A DNA stretch of 64,000 nucleotides from positions 99,820,001-99,884,000 of the forward strand of contig NC_135811.1 of assembly GCF_964213995.1 (NCBI RefSeq), given 5' to 3'. This document shows, in pieces, positions 2,301-60,045 of this stretch. The stretch is from Mustelus asterias. Its lineage: Eukaryota. The translations under genes were made by a program, and so were the position numbers. Numbering within the stretch: position 1 is the stretch's first letter; every line of letters begins with the position of its first letter. The notes beneath the pieces were generated by a model. That model saw nothing but the letters and a program-made list of their open reading frames with translations, was not told the origin of the DNA and did no database searches.

Positions 2301-3242
2301 AGAGTGGGGTTTGACAATTGTCTGTGTCAGGCGGGGAATTATTTTAGCTTGTGATTTGAATCTTTGTGTCTCGCTTCACAATTTCACTGCAAGTGTTAAA
2401 CAGAGAAAATATTTCCCGAGTTATTTCACTTGGCGTTTCTCCTGTCGCTCAGCTTTTCAAATCTCACTACAGCAGGAATTATTGGTGGATGATCCAGTTG
2501 CAGCTGTCTTTCCTGTCAGTGTTTTATCCTCGGATTCAAAGGCACCGGATTGCAACCCGGCTTGGTGAATGCCAGCCAGTGTGCTTTTTTTCCTAACGTT
2601 TCATCCCCCATTGTCAGTAGGTTTTAAGAAAATTTGTCATAACAGTTTTTCCTTCCCTCCCACAGTAATTTTGAATGTCTACATCTTGCCATGATTCTGT
2701 AGCTTGCCAACAGCTGTAAAGACTATAATCAGGAAATTGAGGCAGGGATTTTGAAGTGGTTATGTTGACTGATAACTAGAAAATGACAGCCACGAGATAT
2801 TGATCGAAGTCCTTGCTTCTGACTCATCCAAAGTTGTGTTATACTGGATACTTCTCTCGGTTTGTACTATTGAACATTTGAGCCTGGACTCCAGCCATAA
2901 GAAAGCATTCCTTTACAAAGAGTATTCCCATCTGATAAATTATCTTGAAAAGCTGTAGAGATGCATGAAGTTGCAGAAAGGAGGAGTAGCGAGGCCACGG
3001 AGAGATTTGATAAGTGGAAGGTGAATTTTCAAGTTTGGAGTATTGGTGGACCAGGGGCAAATGTAAGTTGGTCATTCCCAAGTTTATCACGCTATTCATT
3101 TCTGAACAGTGATGCATTCTGATTCTCTTGCAACATGCCATATGCAAGGAGGATTAAGAGTTGGTGGCCTGAGCCCTCCACTGTTTCCACCCTTGCATCA
3201 GAGCAGAAGATGGATATTATGGTCAAGATAGAGTATGGTGGG

Positions 3243-3454
3243 TGTAATAACTCCACGGAGGCGAAAATCCCGTCACCAAGTTACTTTATTTACACCATAC
3301 ATCTGTACACAGCCAGCTCTCCATTTGCTCCCTGCTGAATGCAGACTGGGAGTCTTTGACACACCTGCTTTAAATAAGGAGCATGAGGCTCCCTGATTTA
3401 ATCATCAATTAGGAGTTCATACTCTCGCAAGCCAACCTGGCTGAAGCCATCACA
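3243..3454 (-). mobile_element. Solo LTR
   Basis: TG...CA ends, perfect 5-bp target duplication GTGGG (3238-3242 and 3455-3459), AATAAA on the minus strand near 3285. Confidence 0.75.
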
Positions 3455-3770
3455 GTGGGACAAGATGGGAAGTAGGAGAGAAACTAGAGAAAGGCATAGG
3501 GCAGGACAAAACCTTCAGGGTGGTTTGGCTTGTTAGAATGGGATGTGGCAGTTGAATGGGATGGCCTTACTACTGGTGACAACAAAGTTCATGAGCTTCT
3601 TGCACTTGTTGGTGGAGGTGAGGGGAGAGGAGATCAAGGAGACTATTGATAGCGGAGAAGGAAAGCCAGGAGTTATCTCTACATTCCTTAATGATCCTGA
3701 AATAGTGAACATGTTTTGCCCGAGGAGATCAGGGCCTGATAGTGCTTGATTTGGTCTACCCAATGCCTCC

Positions 3771-4011
3771 ATGATGTGGAGATGCTGGCGTTGGACTGGG
3801 GTAAACACTGTAAGGAGTCTAACAACACCAGGTTAAAGTCCAACAGGTTTATTTCGTAGCAAATGCCACTGGCTTTCGGAGCGCTGCTCCTTCGTCAGGT
3901 GAGTGGGAGATCTCCCACTCACCTGACGAAGGAGCAACGCTCCGAAAGCTAGTGGCGTTTGCTACCAAATAAACCTGTTGGACTTTAACTTGGTGTTGTT
4001 AGACTCCTTAC
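3771..4011. mobile_element. Penelope-like element end in fold-back arrangement with two hammerhead-like motifs
   Basis: 101-bp arms 3810-3910/3911-4011 centred on GAGA|TCTC; the arm sequence matches the 3' part of the GIY-YIG-bearing fragment at 24695-25013. Confidence 0.85.
3919..3955 (+). ncRNA. Minimal type I hammerhead ribozyme motif (PLE-associated)
   Basis: tcac-CTGACGA-a-GGAGC-aac-GCTCC-GAAA-GC-TA-gtgg: intact core boxes, 5-bp stem II, palindromic AGCT stem III, 4-bp stem I. Confidence 0.75.
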
Positions 4012-4292
4012 AACAAATGCCCAACCATAAATATTCAAATCTGTGCCTCTTGGACTTAAGGGGGTAAAGACAAGGAAACAACCATGGCTGGGGGGGGGGG
4101 GGGGGGGGTGCTGGAGTTATCCTGGTGGACTTCGATAGAATTATATCACGATAATACTGATTGTCAGCAATTAAAGTTAATAGAACAATAAAATCCAAAT
4201 GTGAAACTATTGAAGAAACCAGAGGATTGTGCTACAGGATAAATATCGACTAAACTCACCCAATGGCAGCACTTAAAAATGTTACAGTATAT

Positions 4293-4633
4293 ACGGTAGC
4301 ACAGTGGTTAGCACTACTGCTTCACAGCTCCAGGGACCTGGGTTCGATTCCCGGCTTGGGTCACTGTCTGTGTGGAGTTTGCACATTCTCCTCGTGTCTG
4401 CGTGGGTTTCCTCCGGGTGCTCCGGTTTCCTCCCGCAGTCCAAAGATGTGCGGGTTAGGTTGATTGGCCATGCTAAAATTGCCCCTTAGAGTCCTAGGTA
4501 GGTTAGAGGGATTAGTGGGTAAATATGTAGGGATATGGGGGTAGGGCCTGGGTGGGATTGTGGTCGGTGCAGACTCGATGGGCCAAATGGCCTCTTTCTG
4601 CACTGTAGGGTTTCTATGATTCCATGATTCTAT
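4293..4633 (+). mobile_element. V-SINE (HE1-like), tail A
   Basis: Full head, V-domain and tail ending TTCTATGATTCCATGATTCTAT. Confidence 0.9.
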
Positions 4634-4987
4634 ATTGAAAATAAATGCAAGTGTAATCATTTTTTATGTTGCATCAGGCAGTGTAAAATTGAAATAAAAT
4701 GCATTCAACATAGTTAAGCTGTGGCAATCATGATAGCTTGATGGCCCACATACTTCAGTTCATGTTCGGTTTATGTACATTTTGTTAATGTTTTCATGAT
4801 GGAAGTCAAATGAGGATTGGAGAAACAGAAATCTGCATTCTCCGACCCATTCTCCCTTTGAATGTAATTCTCTGTAAAGAGTGTGATTTACTGCATGACA
4901 ATTCAATGTTTAATGGTCAGCTTCCAGTTGCCAGCATACTTGATAATACTTCGCCAAAAACAAGCCTTGTCTCAATGTGCCTTCTGA

Positions 4988-5278
<291 letters not shown>

Positions 5279-6459
5279 TGAGGTATTTTCGCTTTGCTGT
5301 GCCAGAGTCAGGAGAGTGGTGCAATAATATCTCCCCCGATTGCTGTTCTTCACTGTTTGTTTTTCAACCACTATCAATTTCTATCGGGGCACCAGTCAGA
5401 ACGGGTGCTAGTGAATCAGTGGGAGTATTTGAGCCCCTCGTAAAAGTGGGTCCCTGTCATCATGGGAACAAGGAGAGTTGACCTCTATCACAGAATTGTT
5501 ACAGTGCAGAAGGAGACTGTATACATTAGCAACATAGGTCAAATGCCAGGGAGAGGGGTGTTTGCCATCAGCAGTATTCTTACTTGCAGAAATGCCCTTA
5601 AGGACATAATTACTCCACCTTACACTTCCAAAAACATTAACTGTTCTGATATTCCAAAAAGATAAACCTGACCCAAATTTAAAATTATTTTTTCCATTAT
5701 TTTGCAGCCTTCATTAGCCATCATTATGAAGGGAATCTCATCCCTACCCACCGGTAGCCCCAACGATAGACAGAATTTAATCTTAAGTGTACCCACCTCA
5801 CTCCCCAAGTCTATCAAAATATGTAATACTGACCCATAACACTTGCCTGCCACTGAATTATAGTTTGGCATTTTCATTAGAATTGTTAAAACACATGTAT
5901 GATCACTGCATTTCTTCCTTTAGGGTCTTTTATTTGTGGTATGCCTTGTTTTCACTCTAGTTAAAGAGTTGAATGATGACACTGCTCGTATTTGACAATC
6001 CAGGCCCAAGCATGAACTGCATTCCAGACAGGCAACACTCACAGTAAAGAAAACAGCTGATGAAAAATGGATACCAGCTTTGGGGTAGGGGTGGGAAACT
6101 TGGATTTTGCTACTCAATCCAAAAGATTATTTTTACTCTCACCCATGTTTCGGCACTTAATCCTGCTCTTCATCAACCATTCCTCCACAGTGAAATCCAT
6201 TGTAGTTTAGGTCAAAAGGGTATACAAATTCAACCATTATGAAGTGGTCAGTGAAAAAATACTACACAAGTACATTTAGTTTGTGCATGCAAAGTGATAA
6301 TGAGAGTTATGAGACAGCTACCTGTAAATGTTGCAAATATTATTATCAGAGATTTACATTGGAAATAGTGCTCATCCCTTTCAGAACAGGTGATCACCAC
6401 TTGGCTGGTACAAGAGTGATCCGCGTGATATTTTTTTCCTGGTTAAATCTGCAACCAAC

Positions 6460-8704: not shown

Positions 8705-9000
8705 ATGGTGGCACAGTGGTTAGCACTGCTGCCTCACAGCGCCAGGGACCCGGGTTCAATTCCTGGTTTGGGTCACTGTCTGCGTGGAGTCTGCACATTC
8801 TCCCCGTGCCTGTGTGGGTTTCCTCCGGGTGCTCCAGTTTCCTCCCACAATCCAAATACGTGCTGGTTAGGTGCATTGGCCATGCTAAATTCTCCCTCAG
8901 TGTACCCGAACAGGCACCGGAGTGTGGCGACTAGGGAATTTTCACAGTAACTTCATTGCAGTGTGAATGTAAGCCTACTTGTGACTAATAAATAAACTTT
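8705..9000 (+). mobile_element. V-SINE, tail B
   Basis: Full head, V-domain and tail ending GTGACTAATAAATAAACTTT. Confidence 0.9.
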
Positions 9001-9993
9001 ACTACTTACTGTTGTTAGTTCTTCAAATTGATCTATCCTAATCCAATTTTCCTACCTTTTATTTGTATTCTTGTAAATCTTCCTTTTCAAATATTTAGCC
9101 AATTTAATTTTAAGTGACGTATAGCCTCTACCTAAAGAGCTTTTGTACTAAAACATTACATATTTTAAAAATCCTCTACAAAAAATTGCTTCTAACTTCC
9201 CCCTGCATTCCTCTAATGATAATATTCTTTGGCTTTTTCTTACCAATTTGCAAATCGAATGAAACATTCTCTTCCTGTTCACTAGTGTTGCTGCAGCATG
9301 TACAGTAATAGGGTTTGGGAAACCTTTGAGTTGGTCCTTGAGACCTCGAGCTTTCTTGAAGACATTTGTCCTTGTTACTACCTTCTGTGTCTACATCCAA
9401 ATAACTGATGGAGGCGATGTGATTATTTTTGTAAACTAGTGTTAGGATCCACAGTCTTTGGCCATTTTACAATCTGAATCAGATGAGATCAACAGCATTG
9501 TGGAACATCAAAAAGCATTTCATTGTTAAAACATAGCACCATGTGTTCGATACATGTTCTAGCCAAAGTTTGCTTCCCCTCAAATTCTGCAAGTGGGTGG
9601 GATTTACAAAAGAAATATGCAAACAACTATCATTTTAGACCACAGCATATTCCAGTACTTCCTTGGATCATGGACATCAAGATATCTTGCCTGTGACAAT
9701 TTGATTGTTCCCATACCAAAAGTGGAGATTGCATTCAATTATCATTGACCACACGCAACAAAAACATTGGAAAGGGATGGCATATTTAGCTGGCTCTACC
9801 AGCATTAAACTCAGGCTGCTGTTGTTCTTCTGAGCCACATTAACCCTTTCATAGATTGGTGTTACCTAAATGTTAACATGAACGTGTCTGAGGCATGATC
9901 CTCAGCACATCTTCATTATACATTCTGCATATTAGTTTCCTCCTGAACAGCATATAACGTCGACAAACACCAAGATCATATAACATATTGGGT

Positions 9994-24694: not shown

Positions 24695-25013
24695 TCATGA
24701 TGAGGCACGATTGTTCTCTTCCTGTGGGGGAGCACTTCAGCGGTCACGGGCATTCGGCCTCTGATCTTCGGATAAGCGTTCTCCAAGGCGGCCTTCACGA
24801 CACACGACAGTGCAGAGTCGCTGTGCAGAAACTGATAGCCAAGTTCCGCACACATGAGGACGGCCTAAACCGGGATCTTGGGTTCATGTCACACGATCGG
24901 TAACCCCCAGATATCCACTCCATCTGACGAAGGAGCAGCGCTCTGAAAGCTAATGGCATTTGCTACCAAATAAACCTATTGGACTTTAACCTGGTGTTGT
25001 TAAAACTCTTACT
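24695..25013 (+). mobile_element. 5'-truncated Penelope-like element: GIY-YIG endonuclease C-terminus plus hammerhead-bearing end
   Basis: ORF SLPVGEHFSGHGHSASDLRISVLQGG...QKLIAKFRTHEDGLNRDLGFMSH (HF..H and GLN motifs); 14-bp TSD ATAAAAATGGAGAG at 24681-24694 and 25014-25027. Confidence 0.88.
24920..24956 (+). ncRNA. Minimal type I hammerhead ribozyme motif
   Basis: ccat-CTGACGA-a-GGAGC-agc-GCTCT-GAAA-GC-TA-atgg; stem I ccat/atgg fully paired. Confidence 0.75.
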
Positions 25014-42580: not shown

Positions 42581-42833
42581 ATGATGTGGAAATGCCGGCG
42601 TTGGACTGGGGTAAACACAGTAAGGAGTCTAACAACACCAGGTTAAAGTCCAACAGGTTTATTTGGTAGCAAACGCCACTAGCTTTTGGAGCGCTGCTCC
42701 TTCGTCAGATGGAGTGGAAATCTCTGTAGCAAGATTTCCACTCCATCTGACAAAGGAGCAACGCTCCGAAAGCTAGTGGCGTTTGCTACCAAATAAACCT
42801 GTTGGACTTTAACCTGGTGTTGTTAGACTCCTT
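42581..42833. mobile_element. Penelope-like element end in fold-back arrangement
   Basis: ~105-bp inverted arms (42619-42723/42732-42836), 8-nt spacer, 14-bp TSD ACTAGATATAGGTC at 42567-42580 and 42834-42847. Confidence 0.88.
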
Positions 42834-43620
42834 ACTAGATATAGGTCTCCATATCTGCACTCAAAGCAATTGTGTGGCAGGAAATGCAATCAAAAAATCT
42901 GAAAATAAAGGCTCAGCAGGTAAAACCAGCGATTGGCCCAAAAGCATTAGTAAATATGTCACCATGCGCTGAAAGATTCATAACAAACAGAGCTGTGAGC
43001 CCCACTTAATGTAATTGGCCGGTTCATTTAACAGAACTCATCTGATTGGATCCATATTTGTTACTTGAACTTGTTACGCTGAGATTTAACTGTGGATTTT
43101 TGTCTGGTTTATGACATAGATAGGGATATGTATTCTAAGCGAGCCAACATGTGTCATCTTTTTCTTAAATCAAAAAAACCTGATTCAAAGGCCTGTTATG
43201 TAAGATAGCTCCAGTCAGGTTGTGATCATTCAAGGCCAGTGAAACTGAAGGGTATTCACAGAGATAGGGAAAAAAGCCCAAAGAAAGTTAGAATTGCAGC
43301 TAAAAATAATTTGAATGGTAAGGTAAAAGCTTTAATGTTTTTGGTGGGTGTATGGAGGTGGGGGCTGCTCATACATCCAGCCTCTTGGTAATTGGCATAT
43401 TAATGTAAACACATATAATCTGCAGTTTCTTTCCATGGTTCTCTTGCTACAGAAATGTAAATGATTGTTCAGATTTCAATGTCATCTCCAAGTGTAGGTC
43501 GTCATGTCTGCATATAGCAATGAGTCACTAAAACATATTATGTTTCACCAAACAAAATATTTTGTCCTTTTTTTAAAAACTAAAAAAGATTTAAGGATCT
43601 ATTTTACGTGTTTCCATTTT

Positions 43621-51790: not shown

Positions 51791-53666
51791 TTACTTTTAC
51801 TTCTGCAGGGAAAAAAACTGGATTCTATTCACTGGACCATAAGAACGCGAGACATTTGGATTCAATTAGTGTGGACAATAATAACCTGGAGCCTTTTTTT
51901 TGGAGGGAAAGATCATTCTAAATACAGTATAAATAGATTTTTGAAGAACAGGCATAGGAGATACTGCAGTTTGTACAGACACATTGTTGAATGTAGCCTC
52001 TGGATGGGTTGGATTTTAGCTATGAACACTATTGCTTCATAATTATTGACCTGGCATGGCAGGCCAGGTAGCTATAACAGAAAATAAAGATGCTGCAGTA
52101 GTTGACTGCCAATTTACACAGCCCTGTCACTCCCTCACACATTTCCTTGTTCTGACCTGTTTTATTTTCAATGCAAGATAATTTTGTTACCTCAGCTGAT
52201 TTGAATGAAACCGTAACGCATATGGAGATGGTCACCATGGTTTCTGTGTCTTTATTTAATTGTCTATGGAAGATTTTTTTCTTTACAGTGCTGCCTGGAA
52301 TTGTTCCTGTTGCAGTGGTTTGTGCCCCCAAGAAACATCATTTTTTTTTGTTCCTTGGATAGGTTTAACTGATGCCGTTAACAAGCTGCCTCTGGTCGGT
52401 GTGCTTGGTCAAACTGGGTTTGCTGCCTTGATGGCAAAGGAAATGCATAAGTGAGCCACAGCAATGAGGAGAACTCAGATTCAATTGTTTAACCTACTTT
52501 GAGTTAGTGTCTCGCTACCCAAACAGCAGTTGGGGGTGCCTCAATTCCTATTGGCACCCTAGGCAAAGGGGTAGTTCCTGATTGCTACACTGCAATCCTG
52601 TCTTACTAGTGAAAGTTGAACAAGGACAAGACTGGATTTGACTGTAATACCCTCCACGAATCAATAGCCTTGCTCAAGCTCATTTGTTGACACAAAAGTG
52701 TGGGCAAGGTGCAAGAAGACTGCACATTTGTCACTAAAAAAAAAAGCAAGAGTGAGGTGGGGAGAAATCAATGCAGCACCAAAAACTAGCATGAAATGGG
52801 CATTGTACCTGGACTTGTGGTCAGTGTTTCATTGAATGGGCTTGCAGTATGTTGAGCTGCGCTAGTTGTAAGTAACAAATGTTACGTCATTTAAGTGAGG
52901 ATGTTATGTCTAATTGAACATCAGTGGTTTCAAATGCAACATACTTTAATAACCTGTCAGCACTCGGATTAAATGAAAGTGTCATTTTAGTCTTGTTATG
53001 TGTTTTTTATTATTGGTTAGTATTTGCAATTGCTGACATAAATATTTCTAATTTTAGGTGTAATTACTGATTGTTATTGCCTACTCCATTAAGCATTAGT
53101 GACCTTCCAGCCTTCATAGAATTGTAATTTGAGTTTTGTTGCATTTCAGCACTTGGGAGGTAATTGCCCTTGAAAAAATGTTTGCTTTCCCAGTTACCAC
53201 TTAAGCCCGTATGTTTCTTTCACTACTCCCTGCCCTCCAATCTTTGACTTTTATTTCCTGAAAGACTCTTTCTTGACTCTTGCTGGGGTACAGAACTCCG
53301 ACTGCCTTGCTCACACTGCTGAGGCTGGAGTAGTGAGTCTTGCAGCTGTTTAGCCATGGGGATCATTGCAGTCGAGTCTGGTCCTTACGGGGACATTCAC
53401 AAATGCACACTTTGTAGCAGGACTCCAATATGACAAAAATAATTTTTCACCTCCTAGGGTGCGGTGAGAACATTTATAGTACCTCTGTTGCTTTCACATC
53501 GTCTTTGTCGACCTTAAATCAACTCAGCCGTCAAAGACAGAGGATAGAATAATATCGTGGGGGAGGAAGGGTGGTGGCTGCTAGATGGCAAGCCAACCCC
53601 CACCCTGAAAACCATAATTCCCCACTCCTCATTTGACAGTAACAGGATTCATTTCCTTTTAAGAAT

Positions 53667-55125
53667 TGAGTCTCTTTGTCTCTTCACTGGACACAGGTGA
53701 GGTCCCAGAGGATTGGAGGATAGCAAATGTGGTCCCGTTATTTAAGAAGGGTAGCAAGGATAACCCGGGTAATTATAGGCCGGTGAGCTTGACGTCCATG
53801 GTAGGGAAGTTGTTGGAGAAGATTCTTAGAGATAGCATATATGCGCATTTAGAACCGAATAATCTCATTAGCGATAGACAGCATGGTTTTGTACTAGGGA
53901 GGTCATGCCTCACAAATTTGGTTGAGTTTTTTGAGGAGGTGACAAAAACGATTGATGAGGGAAGGGCCGTGGATGTCGTCTATATGGATTTTAGTAAAGC
54001 GTTTGATAAGGTCCCTCATGGCAGGCTGGTGCAAATGGTTAAATCTCACGGGATCAAAGGTGAGCTAGCTAGATGGGTGGAGAACGGGCTTAGCCATAGA
54101 AGACAGAGGGTAGCAGTGGAGGGGTCTTTTTCCGGTTGGAGGTCTGTGACTAGTGGTGTTCCGCAGGGCTCTGTACTGGGACCTCTGCTGTTTGTGATAT
54201 ATATAAATGATTTGGAGGAAGATGTAACTGGTCTGATCAGTCAGTTTGCGGACGACACGAAGATTGCTGGAGTTGCGGATAGTGATGAACATTGTCAGAG
54301 AATACAGCAGGATATAGATAGGTTGGAACATTGGAGGCAGAGAAATGGCAGATGGAATTTAATCCAGATAAATGTGAAATGATGCATTTCGGTAGATCTA
54401 ATGTAAGGGGGAGCTATACAATAAATGGCAGAACCATCAGGAGTATAGACACACAGAGGCACCTGGGTGTACAAGTCCACAGTTCCTTAAAGGTGGCAGC
54501 ACAGGTGGAGAGGGTGGTGAAGAAGGCATATGGCATGTTTGCCTTTATTGGACGGGGCATAGAATATAAAAGTTGGCATATGATGTTGCAGCTGTATAGA
54601 ACAATGGTTAGGCCACATTTGAAATACTGCGTCCAGTTCTGGTCGCCACACTACCAGAAGGACATGGAGGCTTTGGAGAGAGTACAGAGAAGGTTTACCA
54701 GGATGTTGCCTGGTATGGAGGGTCTTAGCTATGAGGAGAGATTGGGTAAACTGGGGTTGTTCTCCCTGGAAAGACGGAGGATGAGGGGCGACCTAATAGA
54801 GGTGTATAAAATTATGAAGGGCATAGATAGAGTGAACAGTGGGAAGCTTTTTCCCAGGTCGGAGGTGACGAACACAAGGGGTCACGGGTTCAAGGTGAGG
54901 GGGGGCAAGGTTCAACACAGATGTCAGGGGGACGTATTTTACACAGAGGGTGGTGGGGGCCTGGAATGCACTGCCAAGCAAGGTGATTGCGGCGGACATG
55001 CTATCTAGATAATCACATGAACAGACCGGGAATAGAAGGATACAAAAGAATGGTCTAGTGGGCACATGAGCGGCGCAGGCTTGGAGGGCCGAAGGGCCTG
55101 TTCCTGTGCTGTATTGTTCTTTGTT
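53667..55125 (+). mobile_element. CR1 LINE, 5'-truncated, with RT domain
   Basis: VPEDWRIANVVPLFKKG..NYRPVSLTS...QHGF..GRSCLTNL...DFSKAFDKVPH...GVPQGSVLGPLLF.IYINDL...FADDTK; frameshifts near 54335 and 54905. Confidence 0.95.
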
Positions 55126-55849: not shown

Positions 55850-56345
55850 AGGCAGCATGGTGGCAAAATGGTTAGCACTGCTATCTCACAGCAAGAAGTT
55901 TAACAACACCAGGTTAAAGTCCAACAGGTTTATTTGGTAGCAAAAGTGTGGCTTTTGCTACCAAATAAACCTGTTGGACTTTAACCTGGTGTTGTTAAAC
56001 TTCTTACTGTATTTACCCCAGTCCAACGCCGGCATCTCCACATCATCTCACAGCGCCAGGGACCCAGGTTCAATTCTGGCCTCGGGTGACTGTCTGTGTG
56101 GAGTTTACACGTTCTCCCCGTGTCTGCGTGGGTTTCCTCCGGGTGCTCCAGTTTCCTGCCACAGTCCAAAAATATGCATGTTAGGTGGATTGGCCATGCT
56201 AAATTGCCCCTTAGTGTCAGGGGGGCCAGCAAGGTAAATACATGGGGTTATGGGGATAGGGCCTGGGTGGGATTGTTGTCAGTGCAGGCTCGATGGGCCG
56301 AATGGCCTCCTTCTGCACTGGAGGGATTCTGTGGATACTACGATT
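55850..56345 (+). mobile_element. V-SINE, tail A, split by a PLE hairpin
   Basis: Head interrupted after ATCTCACAGC and resumes at 56045. Confidence 0.88.
55893..56044. mobile_element. Penelope-like end, short fold-back lacking the hammerhead
   Basis: Perfect 54-bp arms 55893-55946/55952-56005; TSD ATCTCACAGC at 55883-55892 and 56045-56054. Confidence 0.88.
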
Positions 56346-58498: not shown

Positions 58499-58845
58499 GT
58501 AAGTATCAGTGATAAGCATTATGCACTAACTAACTACGCTCAATACCAGTGCTGAGTGCACTAATACATTACTGTAAGATTAATAACTCTAGTTTAGACA
58601 GTGTCAGATGTATTACTGGTAGTGCCATTGTTTAAACAAGCTCCAGTGGCAACTATGCTAGAAAATATTATGCTATATTGAATTACTGTAAGTATCACAG
58701 GTGCTGCATTGAAGACAAACATTAATATCATGGGCTTGTATTTAAACTCAAGTGTATCAGTTGAACCATTTTCATGAATAGTGATGTGAGACAGGAAGTC
58801 CCAGCAGTGTATGCACATTAACCGCTCGTTGTTTTTAAAGTTTTA

Positions 58846-59143
58846 AAGTTTATTTATTAGTGTCACAAGTAGGCTTACATTATCACTACAATGAAGTTAC
58901 TGTGAAAATCCCCTAGTTGCCACACCCCGGCGCCTGTTCGGGCAACACTGAGGGAGAATTTAGCATGGCCAATGCACCTAACCAGCATGTCTTTCGGGCT
59001 GTGGGAGGAAACCGGAGCACCCGGAGGAAACCCACGCAGACACGGGGAGAACGTGCAGACTCTGCGCAGACAGTGACCTGAGCTAGGAATGGAAGCCGGG
59101 TCCCTGGCGCTGTGAGGCAGCAGTGCCAACCACTGTGCCACCA
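58846..59143 (-). mobile_element. V-SINE, tail B
   Basis: Reverse complement of a full SINE. Confidence 0.9.
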
Positions 59144-59144
59144 T

Positions 59145-59194
59145 TTGCTACCAAATAAACCTGTTGGACTTTAACCTGGTGTTGTTAAAACTCT
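59145..59194 (+). mobile_element. 50-bp Penelope-like end fragment in a SINE head
   Basis: TTGCTACCAAATAAACCTGTTGGACTTTAACCTGGTGTTGTTAAAACTCT flanked by CACCAT (59139-59144 and 59195-59200). Confidence 0.8.
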
Positions 59195-60045
59195 CACCAT
59201 GCCACACCGTTGGTGTTCACACAAGAACAATTGCTACTTTGGCTCGGGTACTAGAGACCTGGACCTGTATTCTAACATGGTGTCAATGCCTTGAAGGAAG
59301 GGGAGCTGATTGGCAGAACAAGACAGGTAAGGAGCAGATCCATATCTAGGAATGGCACAGGACAGGATCCCTATTCACAGCTAGTGCATCAGGTTGAAGA
59401 AAGAATTAGTGGAAGAAGAATCTGTAAAACTGTTGGATACCCACCTTGTAGCCAGGTACAGGCTGTCTAGTTGTCAAGACAAAGACCAGGAAATGAGGGT
59501 TACGGACATTGAATAAATACACAACAATTAGTATCCAATTTACGCATACAATACAGCTACATCTACTGCATTAGTTCTGCAAATACTGGAGGTGATTTCA
59601 AGTCACAATCTGTGTTTTTATTTATTTTTGGCCAATATATACACAAATAAGAAATCCATCTGTGCAAATACAAGCTCCAGATCGAGGAGGCAGGATCACA
59701 GTGAGATTACCATTCATCTCCAGCCCATTCATTATTCCATGTAAACACAAGCAATGGCTTTGCAATCTAACTGGTGCAATAAACATTTGAAGATACTGAG
59801 TGTTAATAGGCAGCTTACAGTAGCATTCAGTTTAAAAATCAGCATTAAATATAAGCTTTTCTTAGCTTACTCAGTTGACAGTCAAAACTGCCAAGAATCA
59901 AGTCCCTTCAGCATTCTTCAAAAGAACAATGAGCTGAACTTTCACACACAGTCCACTAAGGTTCCTGTATTTGTGATGTAAGTAATACATTTGTTGGAAC
60001 ACCAAGTTGATTTGTAAGATTTCCAGAAGTGCCACTCCAAATAGA

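Follow-up and report, generated by a model that had tools for sequence, protein, structure and literature searches.

A hammerhead-bearing palindrome in a rara intron of Mustelus asterias is an ordinary Penelope-like insertion whose relatives hint at how mirror-image copies arise

Background

An intron of the shark gene rara carries two hammerhead ribozyme motifs back to back in the arms of a near-perfect hairpin, which raises the question of whether the arrangement does something for the gene or is simply what a mobile element leaves behind. The locus occupies positions 3771-4012 of the window, the 64,000-nucleotide stretch of Mustelus asterias DNA analysed here, and the initial annotation read it as the end of a Penelope-like element (PLE) whose ribozyme might be muted by its own complement. 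The architecture of an inverted arm with a one-sided tail is already published (PMC8557442, PMC3846280). How PLEs come by their inverted copies and tails is, in the words available from PMC8557442, undefined, and the in vivo role of minimal hammerheads is called "still a mystery" (PMC7761336). The importance of the present case lies in the family rather than in the locus at 3771-4012: some 240,000 young insertions permit single-base statistics on inverted copies, on tails and on the in vivo role of the hammerhead, and together these copies hint at how the mirror image may arise and at hammerhead cutting in living cells.

Results and discussion

Anatomy of the palindrome at the rara locus

The hairpin is a spacerless palindrome of 204 bp, with arms of 102 nt each (3809-3910 and 3911-4012) that are complementary at 97 of 102 positions; the initial annotation had correctly seen a near-perfect palindrome without a spacer, and needs amendment in its size (202 bp) and its extent, the left arm running on for another 38 nt to 3771. 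It was the only such palindrome returned by a palindrome scan of the whole 64-kb window, and its RNA has a computed folding energy of -187.1 kcal/mol (z -29), with none of 200 shuffled sequences equally stable. The left arm (3809-3910, minus strand) is a 5'-truncated pLTR end reading outward and bears at its outer end the 38-nt PLE 'tail' (3771-3808, minus strand), which in a full-length copy ends at the ATG of the open reading frame (ORF); the right arm (3911-4012, plus strand) is a 5'-truncated pLTR end without the tail. The two meet at AGATCT (3908-3913), a palindrome that is common to both arms and pre-existed in the donor, with GAGCAGATCTCCC as its upstream context; the missing spacer is therefore a 6-nt overlap.

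Each arm holds a hammerhead motif, as annotated, and the features recognized there, a minimal type I form, a palindromic AGCU stem III and inverted PLE ends, are all present. The plus-strand motif (3919-3955) has an intact core: stem I pairs 3919-3922 with 3952-3955, stem II pairs 3931-3935 with 3939-3943, and stem III is the AGCU at 3947-3950; the core consists of CTGACGA (3923-3929), an extra A (3930), GAAA (3944-3947), GC, TA and H17 (A3951), with the predicted cut after 3951. The core of the minus-strand motif (3866-3902) is disrupted through a private change of U16.1 to C at 3871, the substitution of CA for UA that had been reported. Position numbers follow the standard hammerhead numbering.

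The insertion at 3771-4012 has no ORF, no target-site duplication (TSD) was found in the flanks inspected, and no tandem repeat of the hairpin unit occurs in 2500-5500. It is a real but ordinary locus of a known kind. An assembly fold-back artefact was considered and ruled out, because the arms differ at 5 sites, the ends are asymmetric and the form recurs with TSDs. The left flank (3560-3770) is an older dispersed repeat with 33 matches, the 32 besides itself at about 70% identity (68-88%).

The site lies, as initially proposed, in an intron of rara, about 120 kb long. The first shared coding exon is downstream of the insertion (5115-5263, plus strand), further exons follow on the plus strand at about 30027 and 58337, and the exon protein has RAR alpha as its best PDB match; shark RAR alpha-A (P0030, a name taken from its source) matches the exon at 100%. 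Within 30 kb a search with RAR motifs brought up no upstream exon; for P0030 the upstream coding exon was placed about 118 kb away on the same strand, and the site is therefore intronic for the P0030 isoform.

Element family and copy number

The insertion is a 5'-truncated copy of an abundant Neptune-type PLE, in which a tail-bearing and a tail-less end meet head-to-head at an AGATCT that belongs to the donor. An arm of its own subfamily, 97-99% identical, is continuous with a GIY-YIG ORF at locus L010, and longer copies extend upstream into a GIY-YIG ORF (73,635 first-look candidates). At L131, a locus of a sister subfamily, an inverted arm, a pLTR, an ORF of 892 aa, a second pLTR and a tail that ends at the ATG all lie within a TSD, and the ORF scores above the Pfam cut-off for both RVT_1 and GIY-YIG. 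The family thus combines the features of EN+ PLEs: a single ORF encoding reverse transcriptase (RT) and, C-terminally, an endonuclease (EN) of the GIY-YIG type, pLTRs, an inverted 5' copy and a tail, here of 39 nt and within the 30-40 nt of that class. Between RT and EN, at residue 754, lies the cysteine motif C-x4-C-x2-C. A CX2-5CxxC motif in this linker is common to Neptune and Nematis and absent in Poseidon in the accessible text of PMC8557442, by whose definition the element is therefore Neptune or Nematis; Neptune is preferred because a preprint, in the part available, gives only Neptune and Poseidon for the vertebrates sampled. It is thus to the clade label Neptune that the linker motif and the reported distribution point.

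An unselected sample of sixty evenly spaced 10-kb stretches (600 kb) from contigs C1-C14 of the 3.68-Gb genome contained 39 family clusters and 23 head-to-head junctions, which extrapolate to about 240,000 insertions (170,000-327,000) and about 140,000 head-to-head pairs (89,000-212,000). Copies of the family land most often as such a hairpin; across the family, arms measure anywhere from tens to thousands of bases. The exact 24-nt centre of the palindrome at 3809-4012 occurs at 27 loci genome-wide, and both hammerheads lie within 30 nt at 171 loci with many differing centres, a count that, like the 765 and 4,755 matches of other patterns, reflects unequal pattern length and subfamily reach and is not a rate. 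Full arms and the same two ends were present at 10 of the 14 other same-centre loci examined, and both whole hammerheads in 4 of 17 measured pairs.

The window itself holds two more inverted pairs and two single arms of the family. A tail-less arm with a 3' piece of the GIY-YIG region, a TSD and a few bases of inverted tail (24703-25013, plus strand) lies in the next intron of rara and carries, at 24919-24958, an intact-core sense hammerhead with no adjacent long complement, the first pair of its stem II being G-U. A tail/tail-less pair at 42581-42836 has a 20-nt junction insert, a 14-nt TSD and two broken cores; a third inverted pair, at 55887-56046, has a 10-nt TSD and a tail arm that begins at the predicted cleavage nucleotide; and a short single tail-less arm lies at 59144-59197 (plus strand). 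Elsewhere, family insertions are nested or in tandem at one site at L003, L086, L101 and L135, some with a repeated TSD, and five identical mini-insertions about 5.2 kb apart (G000:C1:197108112-197141694) probably belong to a tandem segmental repeat. The roughly 50 nt that separate the hammerhead from the tail-less end (3959-4011 in the window, and in all copies) are nearly invariant across subfamilies and are likely, to judge from this constancy, to be a protein-binding or RT start signal.

Conservation, decay and burial of the hammerhead

A search expression with some core letters fixed matched 80 of 84 arms in the unselected sample and missed 4. Among the 80 matched arms, the variable positions were occupied as expected of places free to change, with G avoided at 17 (N7: C 36, A 31, T 12, G 1; H17: T 39, A 35, C 5, G 1), and U16.1, which the expression left unconstrained, was kept in 77. 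Stems I and II were 96.3% paired in 39 chosen rows, with five pairs (16 cells) changed on both sides, a covariation equalled in 0-1 of 500 shuffles and accompanied by at most 46% pairing in slid controls; the structure came from one of these rows, which are related to each other. Conservation of the motif across donor elements is seen as a constant core, variation at N7 and H17 and covarying stems, and the motif appears to behave as a hammerhead under selection in donors across subfamilies. It resembles the minimal type I hammerheads of PLEs (PMC4209133) in CUGANGA, in the extra base before stem II, in G10.1-C11.1, in the palindromic 15.2-16.2 and in the short stem I; minimal PLE hammerheads are also found in Lunse et al. 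2017 (as cited by PMC6765202), and opposite-strand hammerhead pairs 100-700 bp apart are reported from Schistosoma (PMC4209133). The proposed check against Rfam went the other way: the 64-kb window gave no match at gathering score, and 3700-4100 at an E value of at most 10 gave seven miRNA-hairpin models and one intron model, all below cut-off, and no hammerhead model; minimal forms are devoid of helix III, and it is the hairpin that governs the outcome of such a scan.

The initial annotation also held that the hairpin buries the ribozyme, and computation agrees: the pair probability of stem II is about 1e-15 in the full palindrome, 0.03 in the right arm alone and 0.93 in a 46-nt piece, and on either strand the complement is made before the ribozyme. 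Self-muting is thus true as geometry; what lacks support is that the arrangement is special or selected. It is very improbable that the locus is a cassette selected for muting its own ribozyme, or that it forms a functional double-stranded RNA (for ADAR or Dicer) in rara pre-mRNA. Transcription of the complement ahead of the ribozyme and the computed advantage of the hairpin speak for such a role, and selection against active copies in genes is plausible in general, tandem hammerhead retrozymes being excluded from introns in Xenopus according to the available part of a preprint. However, a form found at 23 junctions in 39 clusters is the ordinary outcome in a family of very high copy number, and its decay looks neutral: of 30 arms at loci with the same centre, only 15 retain an intact core, the others often being broken by a change at G8 or G12, and the 5 sites at which the arms of the copy at 3771-4012 differ fall within the range of 3-8 seen in 16 pairs. 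The same gene, moreover, harbours the unpaired intact-core copy at 24919-24958. Minimal hammerheads gave no monomer cleavage in vitro (PMC4209133) and the Anolis hammerhead needs protein (PMC11167929), so that there may be little to mute. More generally, shark introns are full of perfect hairpins of about 100 bp, a possible large source of nuclear double-stranded RNA.

How the hairpin forms

The hairpin is very probably an ordinary by-product of PLE integration, and the insertion dead; double priming from both nicked strands is its likely origin. We infer that the element protein would nick both target strands about 10-14 nt apart and that each nick would prime reverse transcription on donor RNA, one starting at the end of the tail, the second at the tail-less end, which lies 39 nt further upstream. 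The template for both primings would be the same or paired RNA within one ribonucleoprotein (RNP), and the two cDNAs, identical in sequence and facing, would be joined at their 3' ends, at 3771-4012 by annealing of the self-complementary AGATCT. The hammerhead would be a feature of the donor RNA without a role at 3771-4012, where the arms extend about 44 nt past the cut and would therefore have been made from uncleaved RNA.

The outer ends of head-to-head pairs follow a near-strict rule. Both ends could be classified at 77 of 95 junctions, and 76 of these pairs combine one tail-bearing and one tail-less end, the remaining pair being tail-less twice and none having the tail twice; 55 of the 76 came from loci picked by searches, and in unselected DNA, without the copy at 3771-4012, the rule held in 20 of 21. 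The 18 junctions set aside were cut by the locus edge (6) or had an outer end inside the element (12); internal deletions explain some (L045, L051), and L042, L098 and L101 resemble partial fold-back copies. Tail/tail pairs do exist at a low level, a short pattern for them having 15 matches genome-wide; in the first 100 short-tail joins listed, none of the 31 short-gap matches, read by eye, was among the tail/tail matches. A TSD of at least 9 nt (median 13) flanks 65 of the 76 one-tail pairs, as against 2 of 75 controls, and 11 have none of that length.

The deeper-reaching arm in 19 unselected pairs was the tail-less one in 9 and the tail-bearing one in 4, with 6 equal; the tail-less arm was longer by more than 40 nt in 3 of the 19, and at L105, left out of this measurement, it is also the longer. 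By pattern alone, 156 exact matches join a tail arm of at most 44 nt to a longer sense arm. Since either arm may be the longer and short-tail joins are so frequent, neither arm can simply have been copied from the other. Insertions of one arm with a TSD occur with the tail end and with the tail-less end, and therefore both ends prime. Variants common to both arms of an insertion numbered 15 in 16 pairs, whereas shuffles gave 3.5 and at most 11. Of 50 listed pairs, read by eye, 44 were identical at three diagnostic sites and the other 6 differed at one; unlike haplotypes in the two arms were found at L028, L086 and L132. Both arms thus appear usually to stem from one donor. Their inner ends also lie close together, no more than 15 nt apart in 11 of 19 pairs as against 3.9 after shuffling. 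One tail in 76 of 77 pairs, arms of which either may be the longer, and common donor variants therefore fit priming at two RT starts 39 nt apart.

The published self-priming reading would instead have cDNA or antisense RNA snap back at a palindrome such as AGATCT and be copied backwards, endonuclease cleavage then depriving one arm of its tail and asymmetric deletions changing arm lengths later on. Self-priming on an antisense template has been proposed (PMC3846280), as has resolution of the tail by EN (PMC8557442), and this account would explain junction hot spots at palindromes, the shared variants and a few partial inverted pieces. Near-equal arms are likewise expected from fold-back, or from later central deletion. 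A copy cannot, however, hold what its template lacks, and the tail-less arm is the longer in 9 of 19 pairs and by more than 40 nt in 3; the 156 short-tail joins would need extra deletions; tail-less single insertions with a TSD indicate that the tail-less end primes by itself; and of 52 junctions away from the centre, 29 have inserts, only 15 have microhomology of at least 2 nt and 8 are blunt or share 1 nt. We consider fold-back unlikely. A MITE- or SINE-like non-autonomous unit, a 240-bp hairpin plus tail copied whole from a master, is far less credible still: it would account for the 27 loci with exactly the same centre and for the full arms and same two ends at 10 of 14 of those examined, but variants of the centre grade into one another, loci with the same centre differ in the donor haplotype of both arms (L033, L040), and arms vary from tens to thousands of bases. 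Nor do the copies resemble MITEs, which are units of fixed length with identical terminal inverted repeats, the ends here being asymmetric and lengths and centres variable, or non-LTR retrozymes, whose monomers lie head-to-tail with a hammerhead in each, the arms here being head-to-head.

Inserts at junctions often consist of short repeats of the adjacent sequence (L070, L135, L054 and, in the window, 42718-42737); such inserts resemble template slippage or polymerase-theta joining. In LINE-1 twin priming, the second nick primes a second cDNA, and joining by microhomology leaves an inversion inside the TSD. The double priming proposed here is alike in its second primed cDNA and its inversion inside the TSD, and differs in that the second LINE-1 primer lies at a variable internal site and the pieces do not overlap, whereas in the shark PLE both starts are fixed and the same sequence is copied, yielding a palindrome. 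EN+ PLEs (Penelope of D. virilis; Pen2a of Adineta, PMC3846280; summarized in PMC8557442) likewise have an inverted 5'-truncated copy, a tail of 30-40 nt on one end, a TSD and a palindrome at the inverted junction; the shark copies differ in that both arms are tiny stumps, that the one-tail rule is nearly strict and that either arm may be the longer, and the last two features argue against the published self-priming reading. The Poseidon protein of Anolis carolinensis, predicted to be dimeric, nicks and extends both strands, and its two RT start sites bracket the tail with the hammerhead upstream of them, as in the shark element (PMC11167929). Poseidon lacks the linker cysteine motif that the shark element has, and its ribozyme overlaps the ORF start, whereas the shark cut lies about 100 nt upstream of the ATG. 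The literature covered, which did not extend to key older papers or supplements, yielded neither a publication that explains the one-tail rule by double priming nor one that describes 5' ends at the hammerhead cut.

5' ends at the predicted hammerhead cut

A pattern independent of the partner arm had 2,851 matches in one haplotype, of which the first 100 were read by eye. Among these, 50 retained no donor base upstream of the cut, 12 retained 1, 11 retained 2, 6 retained 3, 6 retained 4 and 15 retained 5; the last class includes point mutants and was left out of the test, and positions 3' of the cut are invisible to the pattern. The excess of 5' ends at the predicted cut is 5.7-fold (p ~5e-15 against equal rates), or 50 against 6-12 per neighbouring position; recurring joins with a partner account for about 20 of the 50, and the other 30 are still above that background. 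A pattern spanning the cut found 4,755 head-to-head loci, and in 25 of 50 listed and read by eye the start of an arm coincides with the cut or precedes it by one matching base (6 haplotype-ambiguous, 6 from one recurring join). Individually examined loci placed 9 of 60 arms within -4 to +1 of the cut (p 0.03, a weak result for a range chosen post hoc). The base before the cut site was G in 22, A in 21 and C in 7 of 50; an extra G as a cap or untemplated base would be suggestive and is not claimed, the partner arm explaining part of the pattern.

On balance, the pile-up seems to reflect cDNA run-off from ribozyme-cleaved RNA; transcription start at that base, stalling of RT there, and microhomology or bias in joining remain as alternative readings. 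Such a heap of 5' ends sets the shark copies apart from published minimal hammerheads, and contrasts with Poseidon, for which, in the accessible text, uncleaved RNA is the dominant template and no RNA reads end at the cut (PMC11167929). The joint reading, in which one RNP primes both nicks at two RNA sites and germ-line hammerhead cleavage supplies its 3' product as template, is tentative, a shade easier to doubt than to accept; if true, it would explain the inverted copy, the one-sided tail and the cDNAs ending exactly at the cut. It makes sharp predictions for existing assays, namely one start site per strand and RNA whose 5' ends coincide with the hammerhead cut.

Another cluster of 5' ends, made up of 22 of 81 arms, is found 26-40 nt ahead of the cut, and no arm passes GAGATCTGC among 50 listed loci of the set with two hammerheads within 30 nt. 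In most subfamilies the A of CCCA is preceded at 29 nt by a TATA-like TATAAG or TATATG; here a 7-nt insert widens the distance to 36 nt. With the TATA-to-start spacing known in general, the +29 base therefore falls at the centre of AGATCT (3910). The centre of the palindrome may thus be a transcription start; joining driven by the palindrome explains it equally.

Neighbouring sequence

The coding exons of rara span about 204 kb (G000:C11:99705190-99908900); thyroid-receptor-like exons lie about 1.1 Mb upstream, and a paralogous rar cluster is on C2. Reverse transcriptase frames at 53663-55005 are long and presumably belong to a CR1-like LINE. An abundant SINE-like repeat of about 300 bp, which we take to be a shark SINE, occurs at 465-765, 4293-4617, 8705-9007, 58838-59144 and many other places, and the PLE stumps at 55887 and 59144 lie inside or at the edge of its copies.
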